From a virus (lineage: Duplodnaviria > Heunggongvirae > Uroviricota > Caudoviricetes): DNA of 64,000 nucleotides. This document shows positions 4,654 through 56,513 of this stretch, in pieces. The notes below the pieces were generated by a model. The model saw nothing but the letters and a program-made list of their open reading frames with translations, searched no databases and was not told the DNA's origin. Within the stretch, counting starts at the first letter, position 1. Every line of letters starts with the position of its first letter. The stretch lies in the IMG/VR virus record IMGVR_UViG_2541047596_000003; one strand, 5' to 3'. Made by a program: the position numbers and the translations under genes.

Positions 4654-5889
4654 ATGTCTAAATTACCAACAGGTGTCGAGATTAGAGGTAGATACATTCG
4701 CATCTGGTTCATGTTTCGAGGAAAACGATGTCGGGAAACATTAAAAGGCTGGGAGATTACAAACAGTAATATTAAAAAGGCCGGAAATTTAAGAGCGCTG
4801 ATAGTTCATGAAATAAACTCCGGTGAATTTGAGTATTTAAGACGTTTTCCCCAGTCCAGCACTGGGGCAAAAATGGTGACAACGAGAGTCATAAAAACGT
4901 TCGGAGAGCTTTGTGATATCTGGACAAAAATTAAAGAGACAGAGTTAACAACAAACACAATGAAGAAAACGAAATCACAATTAAAAACACTCAGAATAAT
5001 AATTTGTGAAAGTACCCCGATATCACATATTCGTTATAGCGATATCTTAAACTACCGGAATGAACTGCTGCATGGAGAAACGCTTTACCTGGATAATCCA
5101 AGATCCAACAAAAAAGGAAGAACCGTGCGCACAGTTGATAACTATATCGCCCTGCTCTGTTCGCTATTGCGTTTTGCGTATCAGTCGGGATTTATATCAA
5201 CCAAACCATTTGAAGGAGTAAAAAAATTACAGCGAAACAGAATAAAGCCTGATCCGTTATCTAAAACAGAATTCAATGCATTAATGGAAAGTGAAAAAGG
5301 ACAGAGCCAGAACTTGTGGAAATTTGCCGTTTACTCAGGACTTCGTCACGGGGAACTGGCAGCTCTGGCGTGGGAGGATGTGGATCTCGAAAAGGGAATA
5401 GTGAATGTCAGAAGAAACCTGACGATACTTGATATGTTCGGTCCCCCAAAAACAAATGCCGGGATCCGAACAGTAACACTACTGCAGCCTGCTCTTGAAG
5501 CACTGAAGGAGCAATACAAACTGACCGGGCATCATCGCAAAAGCGAAATCACCTTTTATCATCGGGAGTACGGCAGAACCGAAAAGCAAAAACTGCATTT
5601 TGTTTTCATGCCCAGGGTGTGTAACGGAAAACAAAAACCTTATTACTCGGTAAGCAGTTTGGGGGCAAGGTGGAATGCAGCAGTAAAACGTGCTGGTATT
5701 CGCCGCCGTAATCCGTACCATACGCGGCATACTTTTGCCTGCTGGCTGTTGACGGCAGGAGCGAACCCGGCATTTATAGCCAGCCAAATGGGGCATGAAA
5801 CTGCGCAGATGGTGTATGAAATTTACGGTATGTGGATTGATGACATGAACGACGAACAGATAGCCATGTTGAATGCGCGGTTATCGTAG
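4654..5889 (+). CDS. intR: Tyrosine integrase IntR (411 aa)
   Basis: 411-aa ORF with C-terminal R..HTRHT..Y tyrosine-recombinase motifs; adjacent to ttcA. Confidence 0.9.
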   Translation: MSKLPTGVEIRGRYIRIWFMFRGKRCRETLKGWEITNSNIKKAGNLRALIVHEINSGEFEYLRRFPQSSTGAKMVTTRVIKTFGELCDIWTKIKETELTTNTMKKTKSQLKTLRIIICESTPISHIRYSDILNYRNELLHGETLYLDNPRSNKKGRTVRTVDNYIALLCSLLRFAYQSGFISTKPFEGVKKLQRNRIKPDPLSKTEFNALMESEKGQSQNLWKFAVYSGLRHGELAALAWEDVDLEKGIVNVRRNLTILDMFGPPKTNAGIRTVTLLQPALEALKEQYKLTGHHRKSEITFYHREYGRTEKQKLHFVFMPRVCNGKQKPYYSVSSLGARWNAAVKRAGIRRRNPYHTRHTFACWLLTAGANPAFIASQMGHETAQMVYEIYGMWIDDMNDEQIAMLNARLS

Positions 5890-12578: not shown

Positions 12579-12824
12579 ATGAAAAAACTAATTGTTGCTT
12601 GCATCTTATCAGCTCTGTCTTTTGGTGCTTTTGCTTCTGTAAATTCGACAGATAAGAGTGATGCTGGCACTGCTCAATATGGTGATACTGGCCTTGATAA
12701 CCAACGTTCGAGTTATTTCAATACTGACTCATGGAAAGAAAAACAACTACAAGGTAAAATTATTGACAGTGAATGTAATTTACCTATCCATTTTTCTGGT
12801 GTAAATGATGGGTGTAAAAAATAA
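12579..12824 (+). CDS. Small secreted protein, moron (about 82 aa, signal peptide)
   Basis: Opposite strand to tail genes; MKKLIVACILSALSFGAFA signal-like N-terminus; RBS AAGGTGA; followed by terminator. Confidence 0.5.
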   Translation: MKKLIVACILSALSFGAFASVNSTDKSDAGTAQYGDTGLDNQRSSYFNTDSWKEKQLQGKIIDSECNLPIHFSGVNDGCKK

Positions 12825-12834
12825 AAACAATGCA

Positions 12835-12866
12835 TAAAAAAAACGGGGCTTATGCCCCGTTTTTTA
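12835..12866. terminator. Bidirectional rho-independent terminator
   Basis: A-run, CGGGGCTTATGCCCCG hairpin, T-run; sits between convergent J and the moron gene. Confidence 0.65.
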
Positions 12867-15800
12867 TGCTGTCGTTGATGTTCTAAATGATCCGGTGCCT
12901 CTTGCTACTATCATTGTTGGAGAATACAACGCGGTACAATATGCGTATCCTTCAGATGATGATGTTTGAGGACAATATATTTTCCCGATAATATCTGATG
13001 CTTTTAAACCAGAAAAAGCGCATTGCACTGTTAATGTGCATCCACCATAAGGCACGTAATATGAAATTGTTTTGTTTTTATCTCCGCAACTAAACGTTAC
13101 GTTATAAGTGGATCTATATTCACCAGACATTAATGAAATAGTCGCCATAAGCATAACTGATTTCGTCAATGCATTATCCGTGCTGTCTTTATATGTGATG
13201 GTTGCGCTATAACTTCCGTTATGCCCAAGCACTCGATCTGGACCAACCCCCATGTTAGCAACGTCACCGACAAATGATTTTGCCTCTACTGTACCTTTAA
13301 ACTTCCCGCTTGTGGCCTGAATCTCACCAGTGAATTTACCAGATGTTGCGTACACCGTACCGCGTACAGTGACGTTGTTGAACTCCGCATTGCCGTTTTT
13401 ATTTAGCATCCAGCCAGCCGAACCAGCTTTATAGTTGGTTGACTGAATTTGCTGCGCAATCTTCGCGGTAGTGATTGATGCGTCTCTGATCCACGCATCA
13501 CGGATGTAGCAAGCACCGTTAGTAACATAGAACGGGGTCTGATAGGAGCCACCTGCCGCAGTCATAAGCACGAAACGGTCAACGAGGAAAATACACTGCG
13601 ATTGAACGTTAGTCCCGCTACCAGTAAGGCCGAGCGACATTCCTGTAGCGTATTTCATACCGTTTTTATCAGTGGCAATCTTAATTGAATATGACGCATC
13701 AACGTTACCTTTGAAGTCAGTCAGTGCTTTTGATGTCGTTTCTATCGCCGTTGTGTTTCCGTTAATAGTTACTTTCAACTGGTCGATTCTGGTTGACAAT
13801 GCCTCGTCTGCCGTTGCCATAGCCTGTGACCATTCCGTGATGCTTGAGTTTACATCGTCGAAAGATGCCGAGATCTGGCCAAATTTTTCCGCGCTTGATG
13901 TTTCATGCGTAGAAAGTGCAGTTGACACTTCGGATACTTTCGAATTAATCGTACTGGTAAGCGATGAGTTAAGGCTGCTGATTGCGTCAGTGCGTGCATT
14001 CTTCTCATCTGCGATCGCTTTATCCATCCTGGTTACGTTGCTTGTCACCTTGCTATCGAGCGTGGAAATTGACGCATTAACCCCGCTAATAGCTTCTGCG
14101 CGTGCGCTCGCCTCATCTGCGATTGCTTTATCAAGACGGGAAACGCTCGCGTCGGTTTTGCTTTCAAGACTACTGACGCTGGCGTTAACGTTGCTAATAG
14201 CTTCTGCGCGTGCGCTCGCCTCATCTGCGATTGCTGTGTCTACCCTTGCTATTTCCGCTTTTGTTTTTGTTTGTCCTTTCCTGTATTTCGCCTCAATAAC
14301 AGTGCTCATCTTGCTTTGCGCCATTGAGTTATTAATAAGCGCCAGAGATGCGTTTTGCAGACTTGCTTTCGCCTGATCTATCTCGTCGCTGTTTTTATCA
14401 ACCTCACTTTTAACGCCGCCAAGCGTCGCGCTGATACCTGATATCGCCTGAGCACGTGCGCTTGATTCATCAGCGATAGCTTGATCAAGACGGCTAACAC
14501 TGGCATTTGTGTTATTTTCAAGCGTTGTTAAATCAGCTTTAACCACTGTTATTGCGTCGCTTCTTGCCTGCGTTTCATCTGATATTGCATTATCGAGGCG
14601 CTTAACGCTGGCGTCAGTTTTCTTGTCAAGTGTTGAGATACTTGCGTTCACGTCGCTGATAGCCTGAGTACGCGCACTTGTTTCGTCTGCAATTGCCTGA
14701 TCAAGACGGTTTACGCTGGCGTCAGTTTTCTTGTCAAGATTGCTTATTGAGGCATTTACACCGTTAATAGCTTCAGCGCGGGCGCTGGCCTCGTCAGCTA
14801 CTGCGCGTTGCACATTAGAGATCTGACCTTTAAGGTTTGTGTCCATCACATTCATTTCTGCCGTGATGGTTTCCAGTGATTCCGCTGTCGCTTTTTTCTC
14901 TTCAGCGATAACGTTGTCAATGCGGTCAATTTCCGCTTTCGTCTCTGTCCTGCCTTTCTTGTACTGAGCGGTAAGAGTTACGCGAGTGTTAGTCTGTGCA
15001 AGCGAGTTATTAATAAGAGCAAGTGAGGCGTTTTGCAGACTTGCTTTTGCTTGCGCCAGTTCGCTGCCAACTTTTTCGCTAGACACCTCCAGCGAGTCGA
15101 TTCTCGACTCATGCTGTCCAATATCATCGGCGTTTTCCTTAACTTTTTTATAAAGATCTTCCGTTTCTTTTTTGAGCGTATCAGTATCAGCTTTTATTGA
15201 TCCTGTTTCTATGGTTAGGTTGTCAGTTTCAGTCCTTAAATCGTCAGTTATGTTGGTCAGATTATCAGTTGCAGTTTTGAGGTTGTCAGTAGCAGTTTTA
15301 AGGTCATTCGTAGCGCTTTCGATAAGATCAGTGCGGTCGCCTAGATCTTTAATGTCACCAACCATTTCTTTAAATTGTTTGGAATTCATTACGTCTTTGG
15401 TGACGTAATCGGTAATTTCATCAAAGTTTTCTGTTGGCTTACCTGACGCTTCCACAAAGTCAGACACACCAAAAGCGTTACGCGCGCGCACATAAACGTA
15501 ATATGTGTGACCTGTATTCATGCCGCCAAACGTCCACTGATGACCACGCCCGGTATATTGTGCTTTAGTGGTTATTGATGCCGGATCAGTGATCTGCGTT
15601 TCACCTGAGTAATAAAACTCGTAACTGGTATCAGTGGTGAGCGTTGTTCTGCTGATCGGGTAAACTGTAGCCTGGAATACACCGGGAACCCAATTAACGC
15701 CAACTGGGGCCGCTGGTGCGCCAATAACCAGATCGACAATGCTTTCCGCACCCTTCATGCCCGTGTCATTTCTGCCACGAATGCCTAATGAGTAGTTGCC

Positions 15801-17834
15801 AGCATCAATGCCATAAAAATCATAACTGTAATTCGTGGTTTCGTAGCTTTTAACTACAGCGCCTTCGGCGTTATACACGCGAATCTCAAAGGTCAGGCGA
15901 CGCGTTGTCGTCTGTGTTTCCCATGTTGCGCGACATTGAACCGTTTCAGATCCAACGTTTAACACCTTCAGATTTTCAATGTTCGGCACGCGGAAGTGAT
16001 TAAGCGTGTCGTTATTGATCTCGAAGATTGCGCCATTATCGACTACGGCCTGCTTATGTGGATCATGCTGTGCGGCCTCGATGGTGTATACGCTGTTATT
16101 TTCTGTTTCTGCTACACTGGTGATTCGACATAAAACGGGTTTTGCTGCGTTGGTTGATACAGCAAAAACAGTGCCGTTACGAATCCACGCCGGGGCGGCT
16201 GCAAGGGTGATAATGTTCCCGTTAACTCCGATGATCTGGTGTTTTTTAAATTTACCATCGCTATCAAGTAAGCTGATGGTGTCGCCAGCCGCGATATATT
16301 CAGAATCAACCTTGTCGACCGTGATCGCTCTGCCATTGTTCGCCACGATGCGACCGCCTAAACGAGCGCCTGCGCGATTATTATCGAGGATCTCGATTAT
16401 ATCCCCCGGCGTAAAGTGAATGGCGTCACGGGCCATTTTAAATGTGAATTTTGACGGCTCGCGTTTCGCTGTTTCGATCAGCCATTTACCAGCGCGGTGC
16501 GCTTGCCCGCGTGAAGTGCAACCGAACGCCTCCAACGTGGTTTCGTTATAACCATCACGGGCGATTAGTTTATCATCTGCGACATATTCTTTTGATTGCT
16601 CCCAGCCGTTTTCAGGGTCAGTCCAGGATACGATCACGGCGTTGTAGCATTCTGCGCGTGCGATACTTGAACGAGTAAACGCGCCATCAACGACGTTTGC
16701 ATTTGTGATGGTGGCGATTGGATCTTGTGGCGCATCAATCATCACGGTAAGACGTTGTCCGTCCCATAACGCGATACCACGGAACATACCTGCGATGTTA
16801 TCCAGTAGGTCGCGGGCGCTCATTTGCTCCGTAATGTAAGCGTTAAGCGTCATGCGAGGTTCAAGGCCACCATAGCCATCATCAACCAACTGATCGCAGT
16901 ATTGAGAAAGCACGTACAAAGCGCCATCATCAACATCAATGTAACCAGCATGTCGAGCAAGTCCAAAGCGCTCGTTTTTAACCAGATACCGGAAAAGCCA
17001 TGCAGGGTTATTGGTATACGCCTTTTTAAATCCACCAAGCCATAAACCTGAATATGTGCGCGTTTCAGGGTTGTAATTGTCAGGCACATCAACAATCAGG
17101 CCGCGAAGGTGATAGGTGCGGGTAGGCGTATCAGTATACTGATCATGGTCAATTACGGCGCCAGCTACAGCGGTATGAGGATAAGACAGATTATCATCTA
17201 TTATTTCGCTGTAACTACTCCACCGCGTATCATTCCGCAATAGATCGCCGTTGCTGTCTGGTGTTATGCGACGAACGCGAATATCAAACGGTTTTTCATC
17301 CGGCGCTTTAATGATGTGAGCTTCCAGGTATTCACCGCTTTGTTTACCAGGGCCAATGTGTATGTCTTTAATCAGCGACCACGTAGAAGATGATGACGGT
17401 TTAACATCAACCATCAACATGACGGATGTATTATATTGATTGCCCTTTTCATCTGACTGAACGAGAGCATCAACACCAAGATTCAACCTGACGCGGGTAA
17501 CGTTTGGATCTGAAACAGTCCTGATTATTGGTGTGTCGTGAGTTACCTTTGCGTTGACAATAACGGTTGACTCAATGGCGTTAAAACCATTAATCGGCGA
17601 TTGGTCAGCCGTGCCGTTGCGCCAGGCTATACTAATCCCCGGAATTGATGTATTCCCGTTTGCGTCAGTAACAGGAGTGTCATTAAGCATCACGTCATTC
17701 AATGGCGCTTTCTGGTTTACCGGACCGTATATCGGCCCTTCGCTGAGAATATCTAAAACACGATAAAACTGTTTGTGATACAGGTTATCGTTCAATAATG
17801 TTGGTGTTTTGGCTTTGCCGCCGCCGCTACTCAT
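12864..17834 (-). CDS. Host specificity / central tail fibre protein J-like (1656 aa)
   Basis: N-terminal and central regions align with recalled lambda J (e.g. YHLRG..VP.NYNP.TR.YSG.W); long internal coiled-coil repeat insertion. Confidence 0.88.
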   Translation of the reverse strand: MSSGGGKAKTPTLLNDNLYHKQFYRVLDILSEGPIYGPVNQKAPLNDVMLNDTPVTDANGNTSIPGISIAWRNGTADQSPINGFNAIESTVIVNAKVTHDTPIIRTVSDPNVTRVRLNLGVDALVQSDEKGNQYNTSVMLMVDVKPSSSSTWSLIKDIHIGPGKQSGEYLEAHIIKAPDEKPFDIRVRRITPDSNGDLLRNDTRWSSYSEIIDDNLSYPHTAVAGAVIDHDQYTDTPTRTYHLRGLIVDVPDNYNPETRTYSGLWLGGFKKAYTNNPAWLFRYLVKNERFGLARHAGYIDVDDGALYVLSQYCDQLVDDGYGGLEPRMTLNAYITEQMSARDLLDNIAGMFRGIALWDGQRLTVMIDAPQDPIATITNANVVDGAFTRSSIARAECYNAVIVSWTDPENGWEQSKEYVADDKLIARDGYNETTLEAFGCTSRGQAHRAGKWLIETAKREPSKFTFKMARDAIHFTPGDIIEILDNNRAGARLGGRIVANNGRAITVDKVDSEYIAAGDTISLLDSDGKFKKHQIIGVNGNIITLAAAPAWIRNGTVFAVSTNAAKPVLCRITSVAETENNSVYTIEAAQHDPHKQAVVDNGAIFEINNDTLNHFRVPNIENLKVLNVGSETVQCRATWETQTTTRRLTFEIRVYNAEGAVVKSYETTNYSYDFYGIDAGNYSLGIRGRNDTGMKGAESIVDLVIGAPAAPVGVNWVPGVFQATVYPISRTTLTTDTSYEFYYSGETQITDPASITTKAQYTGRGHQWTFGGMNTGHTYYVYVRARNAFGVSDFVEASGKPTENFDEITDYVTKDVMNSKQFKEMVGDIKDLGDRTDLIESATNDLKTATDNLKTATDNLTNITDDLRTETDNLTIETGSIKADTDTLKKETEDLYKKVKENADDIGQHESRIDSLEVSSEKVGSELAQAKASLQNASLALINNSLAQTNTRVTLTAQYKKGRTETKAEIDRIDNVIAEEKKATAESLETITAEMNVMDTNLKGQISNVQRAVADEASARAEAINGVNASISNLDKKTDASVNRLDQAIADETSARTQAISDVNASISTLDKKTDASVKRLDNAISDETQARSDAITVVKADLTTLENNTNASVSRLDQAIADESSARAQAISGISATLGGVKSEVDKNSDEIDQAKASLQNASLALINNSMAQSKMSTVIEAKYRKGQTKTKAEIARVDTAIADEASARAEAISNVNASVSSLESKTDASVSRLDKAIADEASARAEAISGVNASISTLDSKVTSNVTRMDKAIADEKNARTDAISSLNSSLTSTINSKVSEVSTALSTHETSSAEKFGQISASFDDVNSSITEWSQAMATADEALSTRIDQLKVTINGNTTAIETTSKALTDFKGNVDASYSIKIATDKNGMKYATGMSLGLTGSGTNVQSQCIFLVDRFVLMTAAGGSYQTPFYVTNGACYIRDAWIRDASITTAKIAQQIQSTNYKAGSAGWMLNKNGNAEFNNVTVRGTVYATSGKFTGEIQATSGKFKGTVEAKSFVGDVANMGVGPDRVLGHNGSYSATITYKDSTDNALTKSVMLMATISLMSGEYRSTYNVTFSCGDKNKTISYYVPYGGCTLTVQCAFSGLKASDIIGKIYCPQTSSSEGYAYCTALYSPTMIVARGTGSFRTSTTA
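14030..14790. repeat. Tandem in-frame DNA repeats inside J (coiled-coil repeat units)
   Basis: Near-identical about 40-nt cores (AATAGCTTCTGCGCGTGCGCTCGCCTCATCTGCGATTGCT at about 14088 and 14196) with about 108-nt period; protein repeats D.AIADE.SAR..AISGVNASIS.LD. Confidence 0.6.
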
Positions 17835-19759: not shown

Positions 19760-19888
19760 TTTCTCACCTTGTCATTCTGTGATCTGCGTCACGCTAAATC
19801 ATACCAAAATGGATTGATCGCGGTTTTTACAATATGTATATTTTACTCAAACGGAAGCATAGTTAACAAAATGGCGCGGAGGTGCGTT

Positions 19889-21370: not shown

Positions 21371-21537
21371 AAAACCCCCACAAGTTACATTTTGTATATA
21401 TCTTTACGCGCTTCTACGCGAAAAATAAGATCATTGTCACAATGATTATAGCTAGTTTACAAAATGGCTTCACATAGCACGCAACAAGATGTATATAGAA
21501 AGCAAGAAGAAAGTAGTACCAACGAAGGAGGCCCAAA

Positions 21538-21693
21538 ATGAAACGCTATGTAGTAGTAATGCTAAATAACGCATTCGAACAAGTGGAAATAGCAATCGTT
21601 AAGGGTTTCGACGACGCATTCAAATACGGTCAATTCATGATGAATGCGAAAGAAGATGAATACCGGGACTTCTTCCTGAAGGCACTTAACTAA
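21538..21693 (+). CDS. Hypothetical small protein, moron (51 aa)
   Basis: ATG at 21538 with AAGGAGG 6 nt upstream; not in the ORF track (under 60 aa). Confidence 0.5.
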   Translation: MKRYVVVMLNNAFEQVEIAIVKGFDDAFKYGQFMMNAKEDEYRDFFLKALN

Positions 21694-21710
21694 GGATGAT
21701 GGGGTGAGTT

Positions 21711-21965
21711 ATGAAACTGGTAGCGATTGACAGAAATCTGAAAGCACAGAAAAACGCACAGGACCGGATCATCAAGAAAGGTAAGGAATTACTTAAAGCC
21801 TTTCTGAGAAAAGAAGTTTACCCCAAAAAGTTACGCGACGGTTACGGATACAAAATGGATATCAATCTTGATTGGAGGCTGTTTAGCGAAGATTTGAAGG
21901 TTTGGTTAATTGTTGAGCACCATGCCTATAACAAGTTATGTGGCGTGAAAGGCACTCATAAGTGA
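21711..21965 (+). CDS. Hypothetical protein, moron (84 aa)
   Basis: ORF 17 nt after the previous gene with GGGGTGAG RBS; followed by terminator. Confidence 0.5.
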   Translation: MKLVAIDRNLKAQKNAQDRIIKKGKELLKAFLRKEVYPKKLRDGYGYKMDINLDWRLFSEDLKVWLIVEHHAYNKLCGVKGTHK

Positions 21966-22051: not shown

Positions 22052-24394
22052 TTATTTGCGGCGAGGTTGCAACATTCCGCCTGGTCTTTGAGATTCCCTT
22101 GTTATCATTTTCATGGCTACACGTTCCATTGTTAATTCAAGTCTGCGGCTGTCTTCGTCGCTGAATCCGTTCGTGGTCTGAATGCTGATACTGACAGGCA
22201 TACTAATACCGCCACCGCCGCCAATATCACGGCCCGGAATAACTCTGCCGTTCTCGCCAGGGATCATATATTGATTGCCGTTAGATGTCTGGAATAGCTC
22301 CGGCCTGTTGTGTTCCCCTACGCGGTACATATTACCACCAATGACGCTACCACCATTAAAGCGACCGCCGCCGAAAATTGACGTAGCCAGCGACATGATC
22401 GCAGTGAGCGCCGCCGAACCAGCCGCCGCCCAGCTACCGCCAGTTGACGCCGCAGTTGCCGCCGCTGCTGGGGCCGCCGCCGCAGCAATGCTTCCCTGAG
22501 CTGCTACCGCGCTTGCTGTTGTACTTGTTTGCGTGGCCTTGCTTTGTGTCTCCATCATGATCTGATCTGCTATCCAGTTTGCAGCTATGTCTGAGAGTCT
22601 GTTACCGATATTGCCGAGTATATTGCTTCCTAAGTTAGCAAAAACATCACTCAATGATTGAGTGCCGTTTAACAGGCCAACAAGTGCATTGCTCATACCA
22701 CCTTTAAGGCCATTAACGCAATCACCGATAAGGCTGTTTGTGTCGCTTTGCGCCTGCCATTGCTCCCACTTCAGATCGCGGATCTGTTGCTCATAGGCTA
22801 ACAGTTCCTGTTTCTGTTGCGCTTCCGTCACGCCCAGGTCGATAAGCATTTGCTTACGGACGGCCCATTCATTTTGAACCTGCTGAATAGGGTCTACTTC
22901 GCCCTTTAGCTGATCCATCGGGCTTACTATTTGCTCCCATTTGTCGCGCAATTCCTCTACCGGAATTTGTGCTAATTCTTCCTTTAGTTCCTTACCTATC
23001 CCTTTTTGCGCGGCGCGGTACTCAAGGAGAGTGATTTTACCCTGGGCGAATGCAGCATCAATGGCCTTGCCGCTCTCTAACGCTTTGCGCATAGCGGCGG
23101 CGTCTTTGTTGTACTGGTCAGAAACGCTTATACCTTTATCGCCAAGACGATCAGCTTCAGATTTCTTCTCTTTTTTCTGTTTTTTCGGTTTGTCTACTGG
23201 CTTGTCGAATCCGGTAATCGCTCCGTCATTGGCGGCATTCTGTTCATTTTTCCTTGCTTCTTCTGTAGCCTGGATTGCTGCGGTCAGATCATCCTGTAGT
23301 TGCATGACCTTGCCAACGGTCTTACCGTATTTCTTCTCGTAGTTGCTGTTATATTCGTCGGTTTGCTCTCCTACGACCTCCTTCATCCATTTGTAGGCAT
23401 CCATTAGTGCCTTGATTGGCGTCACCATTGCGATGATCTTCTCGGCTACCTCGCCAGCCTTGATTCTGACATCTTCAAACATGTCGATGAATTCGCCACC
23501 AGCCGTCTTCAGGGTGTTAAAGCAGGTTTTAGCGAAATCAGCGCCTTCACCTAAAGCCTTAACACCTTTCGTTACAAGATCGATACCAGCAACAACCGTA
23601 TCGGATACACCGAAAAGATCATCCAATTGCTCAATAAGTCCCATAACCTCGACTTTAAGCTCATTCAGGGCCATGCCGGATGTGCGCGGCAACTGCGCAA
23701 ACTTCTCGTTTGTTTCCTGCGTAGCCGCCTGGATTGCGTTAACCATCCTTTCTGCCGTGATCTTACCGTCCAGCATTTCGGCGCGGAATTGGCCCATTGA
23801 TAACCCCATCTGGCGTGCCATTGTCTGTACGATGGTCGGGGTGTTTTCTAACAGGCTGTTGAATTCTTCAGCACGCAACACGCCACCGTCGATAGACTGA
23901 CGGAATTGACGCATTGAGTTTGACATCTGCTCCGCTGACGCGCCGCCCAACGCCCCCATTTTCTGAATCGTACCTACCAGGTTAAGCAATTGCCCTTCAG
24001 TGGCGGACGTGTTCTTCAGTGAGATAGCTAAGCCTTGCCACAGATCCCCGGTATCCTTCATGCTTTGGCCTGTTTCTTTTGATATTGCTTTCAGGCCATC
24101 AAAAACCCGTCCGGCGGACTCCGCATCGCCCGTAAGCATTTTGATTTTTACGCGAAGCATTTTTGCTTGCTCCGCCATATCCATAAATTGACGCACGGCC
24201 TCCGCAGCAATTAGCAAATGGATAACCCTGGTCAGTGCCTTGATGGATGTTTTCAGGGTGTTTACCTGGCGGTCAGCCTGTTTTGCGCCGCGCTCTATAC
24301 GCCCAAAGGCCTGGTCTGCCTGTCGTTGTGCAACGAGAAGTTGACCAGTTTTCGCATCAACTTCGTAATAAATTGTACCTACACTGGTAGCCAT
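22052..24394 (-). CDS. Tail tape measure protein (780 aa)
   Basis: Long Ala/Gly/Gln-rich alpha-helical protein, position upstream of M-L-K-I-J. Confidence 0.8.
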   Translation of the reverse strand: MATSVGTIYYEVDAKTGQLLVAQRQADQAFGRIERGAKQADRQVNTLKTSIKALTRVIHLLIAAEAVRQFMDMAEQAKMLRVKIKMLTGDAESAGRVFDGLKAISKETGQSMKDTGDLWQGLAISLKNTSATEGQLLNLVGTIQKMGALGGASAEQMSNSMRQFRQSIDGGVLRAEEFNSLLENTPTIVQTMARQMGLSMGQFRAEMLDGKITAERMVNAIQAATQETNEKFAQLPRTSGMALNELKVEVMGLIEQLDDLFGVSDTVVAGIDLVTKGVKALGEGADFAKTCFNTLKTAGGEFIDMFEDVRIKAGEVAEKIIAMVTPIKALMDAYKWMKEVVGEQTDEYNSNYEKKYGKTVGKVMQLQDDLTAAIQATEEARKNEQNAANDGAITGFDKPVDKPKKQKKEKKSEADRLGDKGISVSDQYNKDAAAMRKALESGKAIDAAFAQGKITLLEYRAAQKGIGKELKEELAQIPVEELRDKWEQIVSPMDQLKGEVDPIQQVQNEWAVRKQMLIDLGVTEAQQKQELLAYEQQIRDLKWEQWQAQSDTNSLIGDCVNGLKGGMSNALVGLLNGTQSLSDVFANLGSNILGNIGNRLSDIAANWIADQIMMETQSKATQTSTTASAVAAQGSIAAAAAPAAAATAASTGGSWAAAGSAALTAIMSLATSIFGGGRFNGGSVIGGNMYRVGEHNRPELFQTSNGNQYMIPGENGRVIPGRDIGGGGGISMPVSISIQTTNGFSDEDSRRLELTMERVAMKMITRESQRPGGMLQPRRK

Positions 24395-24521
24395 GATTTA
24401 ACCTCATGCAAAAATGTGATCTGTGTATCTATTTTATACAAAATGGCTTTACTTCAACGACTCCATTTTGTATAAAGAAGCCAAAGGGAATGGTCAGTAA
24501 ATCAAGTTAGCGTGGTGGGTT

Positions 24522-25181
24522 ATGAAACGGTTAGCAAAAGTGGCAATGATTGCGGCGGTATTGGGTCTGGTTGGTTGCAATGAGGATAATGAAAAAGCGC
24601 CTATAGTGACCACTCAAGAACAACAAGCATTAGCAGAGAAAAATGCTAAATGGCTTGCAGAACAACAAGCAAAACAAGCCGCATATGAGGCACAGTTAGC
24701 AAAAGAAAAAGCTGGTAAACAGTGGCTTGTGGTCGAAAGAAAAGATGATATGCAGGACACAAAAAACGTGTTCCTTTTCGTGAAAGCAGAACATTTCAGC
24801 GGAAGTCTTGATGCTTTCCCTACACTGAAAGCACGGGATGAAAACAAACCTGTATTAACAATCGCTTGCCAGGGTAATAAAACAAAAATGTTCGTAGCAT
24901 GGTCAAACCATGTAACTGACGCTGGGGACACTACTTATATTAACTACCGGATCGGCGATCACAAAGCTGTAGCTACTGAATGGAGTCGGTCAACTAACTA
25001 TAAAGCTCTTGGATTATGGAACGGCAAAAAAGCCATTCCAATGATTAAAAAACTGGTTAACGAAAAACAATTTATCATTGAAGTAGTGCCGGAAGCTGGC
25101 GACATTGAGAAAGCAGTGTTTAACATTGATGGTCTTTATAACCACATCGACAAAGTGAAAAACGCTTGCAACTGGAATTAA
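24522..25181 (+). CDS. Lipoprotein, moron (219 aa)
   Basis: Lipobox LVGC after signal peptide MKRLAKVAMIAAVLG; opposite strand between tape measure and tail chaperone genes. Confidence 0.6.
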   Translation: MKRLAKVAMIAAVLGLVGCNEDNEKAPIVTTQEQQALAEKNAKWLAEQQAKQAAYEAQLAKEKAGKQWLVVERKDDMQDTKNVFLFVKAEHFSGSLDAFPTLKARDENKPVLTIACQGNKTKMFVAWSNHVTDAGDTTYINYRIGDHKAVATEWSRSTNYKALGLWNGKKAIPMIKKLVNEKQFIIEVVPEAGDIEKAVFNIDGLYNHIDKVKNACNWN

Positions 25182-25190
25182 GGGTGAAAC

Positions 25191-25511
25191 ATGAAACGCG
25201 ATGAATGGATGAGAAAATGGGAACATAAACAAGTAGCATATAATCGCAAGATGAACCGCGAATTTGACTTCGGTGTCGCAGAGCGTGATTGTGGGTATAA
25301 AGGAAATCTAAATGGTGCATATGTTCAACATGTTGGCGATAAACAGTATTATTACATTGTCAACTTCAACCATGTATTGCACGCAGATCTGGTTGTTATT
25401 GATGGGAAAACAAAAATAGTAGCGAATAAACGCATTAATAAGAACGCAGCAATCAATATATTAACAGTGATTCGCACCCAGATGAATGTGCTTTACGAAA
25501 AAATAGCATAA
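25191..25511 (+). CDS. Hypothetical protein, moron partner (106 aa)
   Basis: ORF 10 nt downstream of lipoprotein gene; followed by terminator. Confidence 0.45.
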   Translation: MKRDEWMRKWEHKQVAYNRKMNREFDFGVAERDCGYKGNLNGAYVQHVGDKQYYYIVNFNHVLHADLVVIDGKTKIVANKRINKNAAINILTVIRTQMNVLYEKIA

Positions 25512-25527
25512 GCGAACTTAACAAAAA

Positions 25528-25544
25528 CGCCCGGATCTACCGGG
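25528..25544. terminator. Bidirectional terminator
   Basis: GCCCGGATCTACCGGGC hairpin followed by TTTTT. Confidence 0.55.
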
Positions 25545-26223
25545 CTTTTTCTTGCTCGCGATTTTTCATTCTTTTTAGTATCTCCATAGCACCATTCATT
25601 CCATCGTCATAAGCCTTTTTATCCAGCAATACATTTGGGCGTTTTTGTTTGTTTCTTGCTTCTGGCGGCGTTTTAGCGCGTACAACGGCCCTATATCCGG
25701 TCATTGTCATATTCCATGCTTCTGATTCTGATAACCCCAGGTGAGCTACGGCAGAATAAACGAATTCCAGCACGTTAAAAGTCGGCTTATATTCCCCTTC
25801 CCGGATCTCTCCGGCGTCTTCTTCTGGCCCGTCACCGATTAAACCGTGGTACATGCAATGTTGTGCCAGCGTGATAACGTCACTGGTCGGCATCAGTCCG
25901 GGTTTTAGTCGTAACTTGCCGGAAGAAGTTAACCTACATTCACCCAATAACGGGGCTATTTCGTCGTCTGAGCAACATTTCAGGATGCGCATTGACGTTT
26001 GTACTATCTCACCATAACACCGCGCCATAATGCGATTGCGGAGGCCTGGATCTGTAGGCAATCGTGATGGGTATTTGCTGCCGTGGATAAGTGCGAAATA
26101 TTCGACAAGCTCACTATCGTTGCCGATTTTAGCCATCGCAGCAAAGCAAGGATTAAACTCATAGCGCTTACCGTTCACCACAGCCGCAAATTGTCCTGTA
26201 CGAACATGGATCATAGTATTCAC
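25537..26223 (-). CDS. Putative tail assembly chaperone (G/GT position)
   Basis: Position between major tail protein and tape measure; no motif recognised. Confidence 0.35.
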   Translation of the reverse strand: MNTMIHVRTGQFAAVVNGKRYEFNPCFAAMAKIGNDSELVEYFALIHGSKYPSRLPTDPGLRNRIMARCYGEIVQTSMRILKCCSDDEIAPLLGECRLTSSGKLRLKPGLMPTSDVITLAQHCMYHGLIGDGPEEDAGEIREGEYKPTFNVLEFVYSAVAHLGLSESEAWNMTMTGYRAVVRAKTPPEARNKQKRPNVLLDKKAYDDGMNGAMEILKRMKNREQEKAR

Positions 26224-31381: not shown

Positions 31382-32268
31382 TCTTCGCCATATTTAGCGT
31401 GCGCAACTTTATAGTTTTCTTGCGCCCGATCTAATATTCGTTCGTTTAATATGTTACCGTCTTCGTCAACTAATACGGTAATCGTGCTACATTTGCAGTT
31501 AATTGAATTAGGGGATCTACTCCACCATTCGCGCTGCTCATCTATGGTGTATGTTTTACCGTGCCGCTGCGCGTGCGATAGCCTGGTAGTCGGTGATAAT
31601 GCCGAAATGTGCATTTGCATAGTGCGCAGATTAAATTCTTCTGTCGCCGCTTCTGCCTCATCCATACGCGCTGTGCGTAACGCTGTGCATATTTCAGTTC
31701 GAGCAATACGTTTACACCTGTATAGCGGTAATTGCGTCTCCTGATTCAATGTGCGCGCTATTTCCAGTGGGTTTAAACCACGGGCCATGCCTTCAGTTAA
31801 TCGCCGGGCCATATCCTTTTTGATCTGTGCGGTCAGCCCGCGCATTTCCTCAAATACACGGGTACGGACCAGAGCAAGGCGTGTTCGGTAAGTTGTACTG
31901 GATAACACGGCAGATACATCAGGGTAGGCGCTTGAGTACGTGACAGACTGGTTAGCAAGGTTGGCATGTTCCTGTGCCGTGCCGCGCTGATAGGCCACCT
32001 TCACGTAATTCTGCCAGAACCAGAAGTTTTCCGGGTCTGTTAGCTCGAATATCTCATCAATCATGTCGCTGGCATCCTCCAGCATGTCGTGAAATTCATC
32101 CATGTAAATCTGAAAGGTGTATTTCTTATTAACAGCCAGGCTATATTGTATCCTGTCCAATATGGCGATATATGGATCGGCTACTTTTTTCAGGCAGGAT
32201 TTGAAACGCTTAATAGCGCCAGACCTCAACCTCCCTGTCATGGTCGGGTCTTCGGTGTTAGATGGCAT
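31372..32268 (-). CDS. Head morphogenesis / minor head protein (Mu F/SPP1 gp7-like)
   Basis: Position immediately after portal; start taken at internal ATG to limit overlap. Confidence 0.5.
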   Translation of the reverse strand: MPSNTEDPTMTGRLRSGAIKRFKSCLKKVADPYIAILDRIQYSLAVNKKYTFQIYMDEFHDMLEDASDMIDEIFELTDPENFWFWQNYVKVAYQRGTAQEHANLANQSVTYSSAYPDVSAVLSSTTYRTRLALVRTRVFEEMRGLTAQIKKDMARRLTEGMARGLNPLEIARTLNQETQLPLYRCKRIARTEICTALRTARMDEAEAATEEFNLRTMQMHISALSPTTRLSHAQRHGKTYTIDEQREWWSRSPNSINCKCSTITVLVDEDGNILNERILDRAQENYKVAHAKYGEDWE

Positions 32269-47418: not shown

Positions 47419-47577
47419 AATGCTCTCTCCTTTTCAGGTGATTTCTACGCATTTCAGCGCTGCCGGATTTTTAAAGAGCATTTTGTTTGCTTGAAGTATA
47501 CAAAATGGATACACCAGAACAAGGCGAAAAGCGCCATTATGTGATCCACATCACGCAATGACGCCATTTTGTAAATT

Positions 47578-55302: not shown

Positions 55303-55950
55303 TTATGGCAGGTTTACGATCTTCGCATCAACCACCACGCCTATAATTTTTGATTCTGGATTCATAGGGATTGGCGGATACAGCGGATTGAGCGAACGTA
55401 AAAGCCTTTGACCTCCATCAATAATCAACTGTTTAAACGTCGGTATCTGCCCTTCCTCAAGCTGGGCTATAACCAGTTTGCCGTCAATAGCTGGCGCGTG
55501 CGGGTCCACAAGTATCATCGTCCCCGCCGGGATGCTCAACCCCTGCGGCGCGTTCATTGATTCACCTTTGGCAACCAGCCAGTAACTGTCATCTGAACAA
55601 ATAACGCTAGTCGTAACGTGTCGTAATGCTGAACGCCTTGCGTCATCCATATTGTTTACTGTGTCCTTCCAGTCAATAACCGGGTAACTACCTAAATCAC
55701 GCGGCGGCACGGCCTGAAGTGTATTAGAAACAGAATCATCAATGACCATGCCATCATGTGTAACAGTAAACTGCCGACGACCAAGCTCGCGCATAATCCG
55801 CGCAATATCTTCAAGATTTGGCTCTCGGCGACCGTTCAGCCAGTGTGACAGGCCGCCTTTAGTTATCCCCATACGATCCGCGAGTGAATCCTGGCTCATG
55901 CCCTGCGCCCGCATGAGCTGCTTTGCTAAGTCATACCATTTTGTTTTCAT
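55303..55950 (-). CDS. CI/C2-type repressor with LexA-like S24 peptidase domain (215 aa)
   Basis: N-terminal HTH (QDSLADRMGITKGGLSHW), C-terminal autocleavage domain with GESM Ser and catalytic Lys; divergent from plus-strand early genes. Confidence 0.78.
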   Translation of the reverse strand: MKTKWYDLAKQLMRAQGMSQDSLADRMGITKGGLSHWLNGRREPNLEDIARIMRELGRRQFTVTHDGMVIDDSVSNTLQAVPPRDLGSYPVIDWKDTVNNMDDARRSALRHVTTSVICSDDSYWLVAKGESMNAPQGLSIPAGTMILVDPHAPAIDGKLVIAQLEEGQIPTFKQLIIDGGQRLLRSLNPLYPPIPMNPESKIIGVVVDAKIVNLP

Positions 55951-56113
55951 GTCGCTACCCTATAACCTCAAAAAGTTTGATGCAAGTCACAAAACGTGTA
56001 TTTTAAGCCTTGATCTTAAAATTCCATTTTGTAAACTTGCAGACAAGGTAAGGCCATACTTGCAAAGACGCAAGGAAAAAGATAACTGAAGGCACAAAAA
56101 GGCACTTACCTTA

Positions 56114-56148
56114 TGCTCTTTAAAAATCCGGTGTCGCTGCGAAGCGAA
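56114..56148 (+). promoter_or_regulatory. nut-like site (boxA-like TGCTCTTTAAAAA plus small hairpin)
   Basis: boxA-like sequence close to the rrn/P22 boxA as recalled, followed by GTCGCTGCGAAGCGA stem-loop; identical 18-mer recurs at 47463-47480 on the minus strand. Confidence 0.4.
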
Positions 56149-56255
56149 AAACAAATATCACGCAACGGCGGGATCTGTTGAGCGGTCAGTCACTGCTATC
56201 TAATGCTAATGGGATGCCCGCCCGCGCGTTCACTCTAACCATAGGAGAAAATGCG

Positions 56256-56513
56256 ATGAGTATGAACATGATTAGTAAAGCATGGAACGTAAAACTTAAT
56301 AGCCCGATTCAAAAACTTGTCTTAATGGCTCTGGCTGAAAAGGCAGATAACAAAGGACGGGTACATGATGCATCACGCAAAGAAGTAGCCGCAATGTGTG
56401 AACTTCCTGTTCATACGGTACATGATGCCTTCGCCGCGTTAATGGATAAAGGATTTGTTTGTCGTCTTGATGCATTCAGTGATGTCTATGTAGTGATGTT
56501 GCCGGAGGGATGA
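56256..56513 (+). CDS. HTH DNA-binding protein at start of rightward early operon (85 aa)
   Basis: ATG 56256 with AGGAG RBS (ORF track extends upstream from a TTG); helix-turn-helix-like KLVLMALAEKADNKGRV. Confidence 0.5.
   Translation: MSMNMISKAWNVKLNSPIQKLVLMALAEKADNKGRVHDASRKEVAAMCELPVHTVHDAFAALMDKGFVCRLDAFSDVYVVMLPEG

Follow-up and report, generated by a model that had tools for sequence, protein, structure and literature searches.

A VasI/TagO-domain lipoprotein in an exchangeable cargo slot of mEpimmI-type Escherichia coli prophages

The stretch of 64,000 nucleotides (nt) analysed here, hereafter the window (IMG/VR record IMGVR_UViG_2541047596_000003, Caudoviricetes), holds a prophage of Escherichia coli M1/5 with a cassette of two genes between its tape-measure and DUF6246 genes, antisense to the late operon. 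The cassette is a moron in a dedicated slot of an mEpimmI-type prophage, and the cargo of this slot is exchangeable. Its first gene encodes a predicted lipoprotein of 219 amino acids (aa) with a VasI/TagO domain. We tentatively favour a role for this lipoprotein in the periplasm of the lysogen, against incoming phages.

The cassette and its slot

The slot is bordered on the left by the tape-measure gene (22052–24394, − strand; 780 aa, ‘tape measure protein’ in RefSeq, with homologues that carry PF20155 TMP_3) and on the right by the DUF6246 gene (25537–26223, − strand; PF19759 at 7.5e-54, phrog_791), which holds the position of the tail assembly chaperone, beside the tail tube gene. Within these borders, the lipoprotein gene occupies 24522–25181 on the + strand and is followed, 9 nt 3′ of its end, by the gene of a 106-aa protein (25191–25511, + strand), an arrangement that the initial annotation had read correctly from the window. 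Median ratios of nonsynonymous to synonymous substitution (dN/dS) indicate purifying selection on both, at 0.21 for the lipoprotein gene (51 allele pairs) and 0.26 for the 106-aa gene (allele pairs). The GC contents of the two genes, 0.41 and 0.37, compare with 0.50 in the tape-measure gene and 0.47 in the DUF6246 gene. Because of the low ratios and the distinct composition, both open reading frames (ORFs) are real genes.

E. coli M1/5 was isolated from human faeces. Over the tested stretch of 1.3 kb, the window is 100% identical to its chromosome, and in the RefSeq annotation context the prophage spans ~50 kb, adjoins ttcA–zntB and contains a siphovirus tail module. It belongs to the mEp021-like ‘mEpimmI’ group; M1/5 is named among the prophage genomes of that group in the paper that defines it (PMC11893012). 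Among 5,426 complete E. coli genomes, 27 have this junction, and at least 15 of those 27 have cargo annotated as ‘TagO’. Carriers are human isolates and also food and animal isolates.

A survey anchored on DUF6246 recovered 77 IMG/VR loci, among them 41 measurable mEpimmI-like loci, and every one of the 41 has an opposite-strand insert of 0.65–1.3 kb at this place. In distant relatives (DUF6246 identity ≤41%), the DUF6246 gene abuts the tape-measure gene across a gap of typically ~23 nt, with no slot. Clustering of the inserts separates the first genes into at least six unrelated classes, nearly all of them signal-peptide, lipoprotein or membrane proteins. The most frequent is the VasI lipoprotein (16 loci), followed by a signal-peptide protein of 137–139 aa, as mEp021 gp63 (13 loci), a membrane protein of 100–107 aa (7 loci) and a secreted protein of 116–119 aa (5 loci); a secreted protein of 165 aa and a lipoprotein of 245 aa occur at 1 locus each. 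None of the alternative first-gene classes has a Pfam family, and at least five classes are without family assignment. Where a second gene is present, it encodes either a 124-aa lipoprotein or the 106-aa protein. Most cargo types share the first codons of the signal peptide (MKRLAK), and the exchange boundary therefore lies inside the signal peptide.

Three of four sequence-level criteria class the cassette as a moron, with presence or absence among relatives and a difference in GC content both observed. The same classification had been proposed in the initial annotation, and it is borne out by the opposite strand, the AT-rich composition, the promoter-like region and terminator described below and the replacement of the cargo in sibling phages.

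The same annotation had treated the 106-aa gene as a downstream partner of the lipoprotein gene, and this pairing did not hold up. Across the IMG/VR loci, the VasI lipoprotein gene is followed by the 106-aa gene in 6 cases, by the 124-aa lipoprotein gene in 9 and by nothing in 1, and the 106-aa gene is also found without VasI, beside a 160-aa secreted protein and the 124-aa lipoprotein. Since each occurs without the other, the 106-aa gene is no dedicated partner; by its position it is a predicted co-transcribed second cargo rather than an obligate companion. Its product has no signal peptide, hydrophobic segment or family assignment, and its structural matches are uninformative.

The lipoprotein and its VasI/TagO domain

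The lipoprotein begins with MKRLAKVAMIAAVLGLVGC and has the lipobox L16–V17–G18–C19. Its lipoprotein signal, MKRLAKVAMIAAVLGLVG-C19, opens with positive charge, continues with a hydrophobic segment and ends in a lipobox that fits the pattern [LVI][ASTVI][GAS]C, so the LVGC lipobox noticed earlier is canonical. Residues 1–18 are the predicted signal peptide and Cys19 the predicted lipidation site. Across 13 aligned sequences (the query and 12 homologues), G15, L16, G18 and C19 are invariant and V17 is nearly so.

Residues 55–218 match positions 25–184 of the 184 in the Pfam hidden Markov model (HMM) for VasI/TagO (PF11319) at 60.8 bits, against a gathering threshold of 26.5 (E = 1.7e-16), and a match to phrog_1848 (4e-58), whose function is unknown, covers the whole lipoprotein. 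Five residues that are invariant in 60 diverse PF11319 representatives (C116, T121, R143, C216 and W218) are all kept. The initial judgement that the protein is not obviously related to known lipoproteins stands as far as Bor, Cor and Lom are concerned, because no such Pfam family is among its matches at E≤1; it does not stand for the protein as a whole, given the clear PF11319 domain, the phrog_1848 match and the RefSeq name, ‘type VI secretion system-associated protein TagO’.

That RefSeq name itself overreaches, for three reasons. The lipoprotein scores 47.3 bits against the NCBIfam equivalog for type VI secretion systems (T6SS), TIGR03360, below its cutoff of 124.2. No T6SS genes lie in the 41 kb of annotated context, in which the neighbours are the tape-measure, DUF6246, tail tube and other phage genes. 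Finally, the N-terminal C..RL.C(Y/F)D motif of most family members, present in the family consensus and in the BiPBO1, Labrenzia and 500465-2 proteins, is missing, and the LVGC lipobox and a helix at residues 31–63 stand in its place. By its profile matches, the lipoprotein is a member of the PF11319 domain family that falls outside the T6SS VasI equivalog.

These observations bear on the possibility that the lipoprotein is tied to T6SS, either modulating the host's own system or shielding the periplasm of the lysogen from T6SS attack by neighbours. The Pfam domain and the RefSeq name speak for such a link, and VasI of Vibrio cholerae (VCA0118) is dispensable for secretion of Hcp and VgrG and needed to kill amoebae and E. 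coli (PMC3166118). Furthermore, T6SS and phage tails are related puncturing machines, and a periplasmic factor could conceivably act on both. We nevertheless consider a T6SS-directed function unlikely: the gene sits in a prophage tail module rather than a T6SS locus, the equivalog score and the absent C..RL.CYD motif set the protein apart, and a family as large as this one (2,074 representatives at 50% clustering) is expected to spread well beyond T6SS loci.

The AlphaFold2 model has a predicted local distance difference test (pLDDT) score of 75.7, with most of the domain at 80–90. After Cys19, residues 20–30 are disordered, residues 31–63 form one long helix rich in Ala, Gln, Lys and Glu, in agreement with the coiled-coil-like N-terminal region of the initial annotation, and residues ~66–218 form the VasI/TagO β-sandwich, which the model places at 69–215. 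An alanine zipper in the helix, Lpp-like and trimeric, is hinted at only by a sub-threshold NCBIfam match (E = 0.097) and by Ala-rich 3–4 spacing. The sandwich resembles Bartonella IalB (PDB 3dtd) at the level of fold only, with 9% identity and no Pfam match to the IalB family (PF06776) at E≤1. The model is thus consistent with a periplasmic binding module on a lipid anchor, held out by a tether of ~45 residues that includes the 33-residue helix. Under the standard E. coli rule, Asn20 at position +2 would probably direct the protein to the inner leaflet of the outer membrane.

Close relatives form a very small subfamily of 12 clusters at 90% identity, confined to E. coli prophages, and only 6 of the 2,074 PF11319 representatives score E≤1e-30. 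All close homologues examined adjoin the tape-measure and DUF6246 genes; most lie between the two, and one (L005) lies just upstream of DUF6246. A profile search with the subfamily alignment gave no match in contigs from one genome per species, and the nearest outgroup (P0018) as query gave one irrelevant match in genome contigs. A mixed alignment, used in a third round, brought in no more than 4 further, distant fragments. No close copy occurs among 50,697 records of isolated phages, and matches in the BFVD library of viral structures are to uncharacterised proteins only.

A shared control region

The first 80–100 nt from the tape-measure start codon outward are conserved in 34 distinct slot variants that cover all cargo types, with the layout TGTGATC..TTTTATACAAAATGG..(16 nt)..CATTTTGTATAAAG. 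Irrespective of cargo, the TGTGAT core is kept in 34 of 34 variants, as TGTGATC in 33 and TGTGATG in 1. The initial annotation had seen the cassette as bracketed by two copies of a recurrent motif, a CRP-like half-site and a terminator, and all of these elements were found. The two motif copies form a perfect 14-nt inverted repeat (TTTATACAAAATGG at 24433–24446 and CCATTTTGTATAAA at 24463–24476). Upstream of it, a CRP-like site, TGTGATCTGTGTATCT (24415–24430, + strand), has a left half that equals the consensus, with TGTGA at 24415–24419, and a degenerate right half, and CRP binding there is a prediction. Embedded in the repeat is a putative sigma-70 promoter (24433–24476, + strand), the hexamers of which were read from the sequence: an A-rich, UP-like segment ACAAAATGG just upstream of the −35 element, TTTACT at 24448–24453, a 17-nt spacer and a −10 element, TATAAA, at 24471–24476. 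Transcription would start near 24483, with the centre of the CRP-like site ~60 nt further upstream. A leftward promoter for the tape-measure gene in the same palindrome was considered and rejected, as the mirror-image −10 has no acceptable −35 at 16–18 nt.

In M1/5, the segment at 24477–24521 has no extra leader and the promoter abuts the lipoprotein gene. Most slot variants (L040, L071 and others) have an extra leader of ~150–250 nt between the promoter and the first cargo gene, which encodes a conserved small ORF of ~30 aa (MKNVNYRPNEHERYADFIEEMLKALKNK-like). Rfam gave no match in the cassette or leader.

The pattern CAAAATGG-N22-TGTATA has exactly three matches (19805, 21460 and 24439), against 0.03 expected, and these are the three opposite-strand islands of the tail module. 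The islands start at ~19889, ~21538 and ~24522, with upstream regions at 19778–19888, 21371–21537 and 24395–24521. The other two have candidate promoters of the form TTGATC-17-TATATT and TTCACA-17-TATATA, and in two of the three islands a CRP-like site lies ~60 nt upstream of the predicted start. One of these, TGTGATCTGCGTCACG at 19778–19793, is nearer to the CRP consensus than the site of the cassette. The shared architecture suggests that the three islands are co-regulated morons. Across the prophage, the core motif CATTTTGTAT has 26 matches with at most one mismatch, compared with 8.6 expected, and 0 of 100 shuffles reach 26; the recurrence claimed at the outset is therefore real. The motif is best explained as part of a common moron-promoter design, although this does not account for every copy. 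We dropped the idea that it is an operator of the prophage repressor: the immunity region (55950–56256) shows palindromes of the CTTGC-N6-GCAAG type, and the spacing of the motif there differs.

Elsewhere, between the NinG gene and the next gene upstream (47479–47574), three copies of CATTTTGT accompany a near-consensus CRP site, TGTGATCCACATCACG, in a geometry that is moron-promoter-like, with CCATTTTGTATACT ~47 nt from the centre of the CRP site on the − strand. Further exact copies of the motif lie at 32438, 51100, 54503, 55182 and 58865.

On the far side of the cassette, a bidirectional intrinsic terminator (25529–25552, both strands) consists of the hairpin GCCCGGATCTACCGGGC with a T-run on one side and an A-run on the other. 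The hairpin itself (25529–25545) has 6 bp, all GC, and scores on both strands. It is predicted to end the cassette transcript on the + strand, and the DUF6246 stop codon overlaps with it on the − strand. Terminators are annotated at the equivalent position in mEp021 (TERM_9) and mEp010 (T13/T14). Since the terminator is bidirectional and overlaps that stop codon, late transcription can arrive at the tape-measure gene only after passing the terminator and crossing the cassette in the antisense direction. We infer that this read-through needs a phage antiterminator and would silence the cassette in lytic growth.

The layout also bears on a possible part of the cassette in the lytic cycle of the phage itself, such as remodelling the envelope at entry or release. 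Its place inside the tail module beside the tape-measure gene would suit such a role, as would the late-strand VasI-domain gene found at this junction in Pasteurella phage Pmp14. The cassette, however, runs antisense to the late operon and ends in a terminator of its own, and the plaque-forming phages mEp021, mEp010 and MagusPhagus do without the lipoprotein, with the unrelated 137–139 aa gene at the slot instead. Together with the lack of a close homologue in the records of isolated phages, this makes a lytic role very improbable.

Several other features of the window were recorded. The second island (21538–21965, + strand), between a minor tail gene and the tape-measure gene, encodes a 51-aa ORF followed by an 84-aa protein with a ParE-like toxin domain (PF24732, 9e-12). 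The two may be a toxin–antitoxin pair, and most related loci have this ParE-like gene as well. A 457-aa gene (32258–33631, − strand) is called ‘anti-CBASS protein Acb1 family protein’ in RefSeq, a name that looks misleading: it is in the portal position, matches Phage_portal_3 at 7.7e-18 and has an mEp021 counterpart annotated as portal. Next to ttcA, at ~5531–5889, RefSeq places fragments of a DUF1627 gene and of a tyrosine integrase, which appear to be what is left of a second prophage, immediately outside the intact one.

Possible function and comparison with known systems

Our favoured reading, to which we give a probability of roughly 0.4, is that the lipoprotein interferes with incoming phages in the periplasm, after adsorption. 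In the lysogen, the conserved sigma-70-type promoter with its upstream CRP-like site would drive both cassette genes. The lipoprotein would be cleaved, lipidated at Cys19 and anchored in a membrane facing the periplasm, where the ~45-residue tether would hold out the VasI/TagO β-sandwich, of IalB-like fold, as a binding module. There it may act on a phage that has already adsorbed, so that its tail tip or tape-measure conduit is hindered in crossing the periplasm, a role of the kind demonstrated for HK97 gp15. The product of the second gene, at 106 aa and cytoplasmic, would be independent cargo.

Four lines of evidence argue for an envelope role, expressed in the lysogen and directed against incoming phages: the position of HK97 gene 15, the almost exclusive use of the slot for envelope cargo, the lysogeny-linked VasI genes of other phages and the exclusion lipoproteins of the group itself. 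[quoted passage not shown] Its product, an inner-membrane protein, prevents superinfection, and this exclusion depends on the tail of the incoming phage (PMC3594210). In the mEpimmI group, small lipoproteins exclude phages experimentally (PMC11893012). As for the VasI-domain genes of distant temperate phages, the gene of Brucella phage BiPBO1 (gp67) is directly downstream of the CI-like repressor gene gp68, a Labrenzia phage has one beside CI and cro, P2-like phages have one near the att end, and Pasteurella phage Pmp14 has two VasI paralogues between the chaperone and tape-measure genes, amid other secreted proteins. Because these distant genes sit at lysogeny-linked or moron positions, expression of the M1/5 cassette in the lysogen is plausible.

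The junction of Pmp14 (L158, 2497–6540) is crowded, with signal-peptide proteins, two of them VasI-like, between the chaperone or frameshift product and the tape-measure gene, and with a 652-aa protein that has an N terminus like that of GHKL-type ATPases. Pmp14 is an independent use of the chaperone/tape-measure junction as a cargo site.

Several points weigh against an exclusion function. The role of VasI/TagO was still listed as unknown in a 2026 review (PMC13584744), and the only genetic phenotype of the family is T6SS-dependent killing in V. cholerae (PMC3166118), so that the case for phage exclusion by any protein with this domain would rest on context. PADLOC has no model that matches either cassette protein at E≤1. 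HK97 gp15 is a small inner-membrane protein unlike the lipoprotein, and the analogy is one of position only; moreover, classical lambdoid morons are not antisense to the late operon as this cassette is. Both the promoter and the CRP site are predicted from sequence, and a simple sigma-70 scan did not list the promoter, because its −10 ends in A. Finally, homologues differ in the residue at +2 after the Cys (N, R, D, G or E), which makes the membrane location uncertain.

Another possibility is a fitness or virulence factor of lysogenic conversion whose target would be the host envelope or a eukaryotic host rather than phages, in the manner of Bor in serum resistance or IalB in invasion. Proteins with an IalB domain do act in the periplasm and envelope; one of them, RgsG, is essential and sits at the Sinorhizobium growth pole (PMC7327166). 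Control by CRP, if present, would point to regulation that follows host physiology, and the carriers include isolates from humans, food and animals. The likeness to IalB does not extend beyond the fold, however, and the mechanism of IalB itself is unknown, whereas the precedent at the exact position, HK97 gp15, and the tested lipoproteins of the group are all cases of phage exclusion. We regard a fitness or virulence factor as rather unlikely.

A further alternative is masking of the receptor, in which the lipoprotein would inactivate the outer-membrane receptor of its own phage in the manner of Cor, Llp or Lpp. It gains some support from the fact that the VasI lipoprotein is the sole ORF with a canonical lipobox found in the M1/5 prophage. 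Four types of lipoprotein are described for mEpimmI phages in PMC11893012, two of them (A and C) shown to exclude phages that share a receptor, and the VasI lipoprotein may be one of the two others (B or D). The tested exclusion lipoproteins, however, are encoded downstream of the J gene, have 72–82 aa and are unrelated in sequence. We compared cargo with J in IMG/VR loci anchored on the tape-measure gene, with 10-kb flanks. The gene after J tracks the C-terminal type of J: P1, an 81-aa secreted protein, occurs only with type 1, and P3 (Lpp010-like) with type 2 in 4 of 5 cases. VasI cargo, by contrast, is found with four J types (1, 2, 3 and 5), and its association with J type is not significant (Fisher p = 0.054, for genomes that are non-independent and confounded by clonality). 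In addition, two genomes carry the VasI lipoprotein and an Lpp010-type lipoprotein together. Because the cargo is not tied to J type and the post-J gene is, a post-adsorption or envelope role is favoured over receptor masking, which we consider improbable; the analogy with Cor drawn in the initial annotation is weakened accordingly.

In M1/5, the J gene occupies 12864–17834 (− strand), and just after it, at 12579–12824 (+ strand), lies the gene of a non-lipoprotein of 81 aa that has a signal peptide and belongs to no Pfam family. Among the IMG/VR relatives, all 10 of its occurrences are with J C-terminal type 1, and the Lpp010-type exclusion lipoprotein takes the same position with J type 2. 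The 81-aa protein may represent a new type of exclusion factor, matched to the receptor.

A broader version of periplasmic interference would make VasI/TagO a general ‘anti-puncture’ class, found in temperate phages of many Proteobacteria, with a domain that binds and disables the periplasm-crossing tip of tail-like machines; we regard this generalization as quite doubtful. Its targets would be siphovirus tape-measure conduits, tailocins and T6SS spikes alike, and the TagO encoded with T6SS would be a self-directed version, a proposal as speculative as the first. It is similarly questionable that mEpimmI, P2-like, Pasteurella, Brucella and Labrenzia phages all carry VasI/TagO as lysogen-expressed morons, as the class would have it. 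If the idea were true, it would provide the first mechanism for an orphan accessory family of T6SS and a new class of defence at the level of the envelope.

As it stands, the cassette is an ordinary moron with an uncharacterised, already annotated domain, and its main value is as a handle on an orphan domain family. VasI/TagO has been carried in T6SS annotation for 15 years without a known role; if the lipoprotein excludes phages or protects the envelope, this would be the first function for the family, which exceeds 2,000 clusters. The junction would then be a conserved loading dock for envelope-acting cargo in abundant gut coliphages, and its conserved promoter and exchangeable cargo make the slot easy to mine for exclusion or surface-modifying proteins. 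In the literature searched, three observations appear to be new: the chaperone/tape-measure junction of mEpimmI phages as a slot with a conserved promoter and exchangeable envelope cargo, a VasI-domain variant with a lipid anchor and a helical tether, and the recurrence of VasI domains as temperate-phage cargo.

Compared with VasI/TagO proper (V. cholerae VCA0118; TIGR03360), the phage lipoprotein shares the C-terminal domain, with its Cys pair, Thr, Arg and Trp, and export to the periplasm, which is predicted here. It differs in lying outside a T6SS cluster, in scoring below the equivalog cutoff and in the replacement of the N-terminal motif by a lipobox and helical tether. IalB is more remote, being from another organism and context and outside any Pfam match; proteins with its domain act in the periplasm by an unknown mechanism (PMC7327166, for RgsG). 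Closer in setting are mEp021 gp81 and mEp010 gp116, likewise prophage lipoproteins in the structural cluster of the same group, which exclude phages (PMC11893012). They are small (72–82 aa), are encoded just after J and track receptor type, and neither has a BLASTP match to the mature VasI lipoprotein at E≤10.

Similar to the M1/5 cassette, HK97 gene 15 is an add-on, absent from relatives, at the chaperone/tape-measure junction of a siphovirus that is temperate in E. coli, with a product destined for the envelope (PMC3594210); one cargo class of the slot is, like gp15, a small membrane protein (100–107 aa). Unlike the lipoprotein, for which exclusion is a prediction, gp15 has no VasI domain and has a demonstrated exclusion function, and the classical moron is co-oriented with the late operon, to which the cassette is antisense. 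In mechanism, a comparable case is Ltp of Streptococcus phage TP-J34, the target of which is the tape-measure protein of the incoming phage, as the title of Bebeacua et al. 2013 states (cited in PMC3952083). Ltp, with a fold unrelated to that of the VasI lipoprotein, is encoded in the lysogeny module of a phage of Gram-positive bacteria, but it is a prophage lipoprotein that blocks DNA injection, the class of mechanism favoured here for the VasI lipoprotein.

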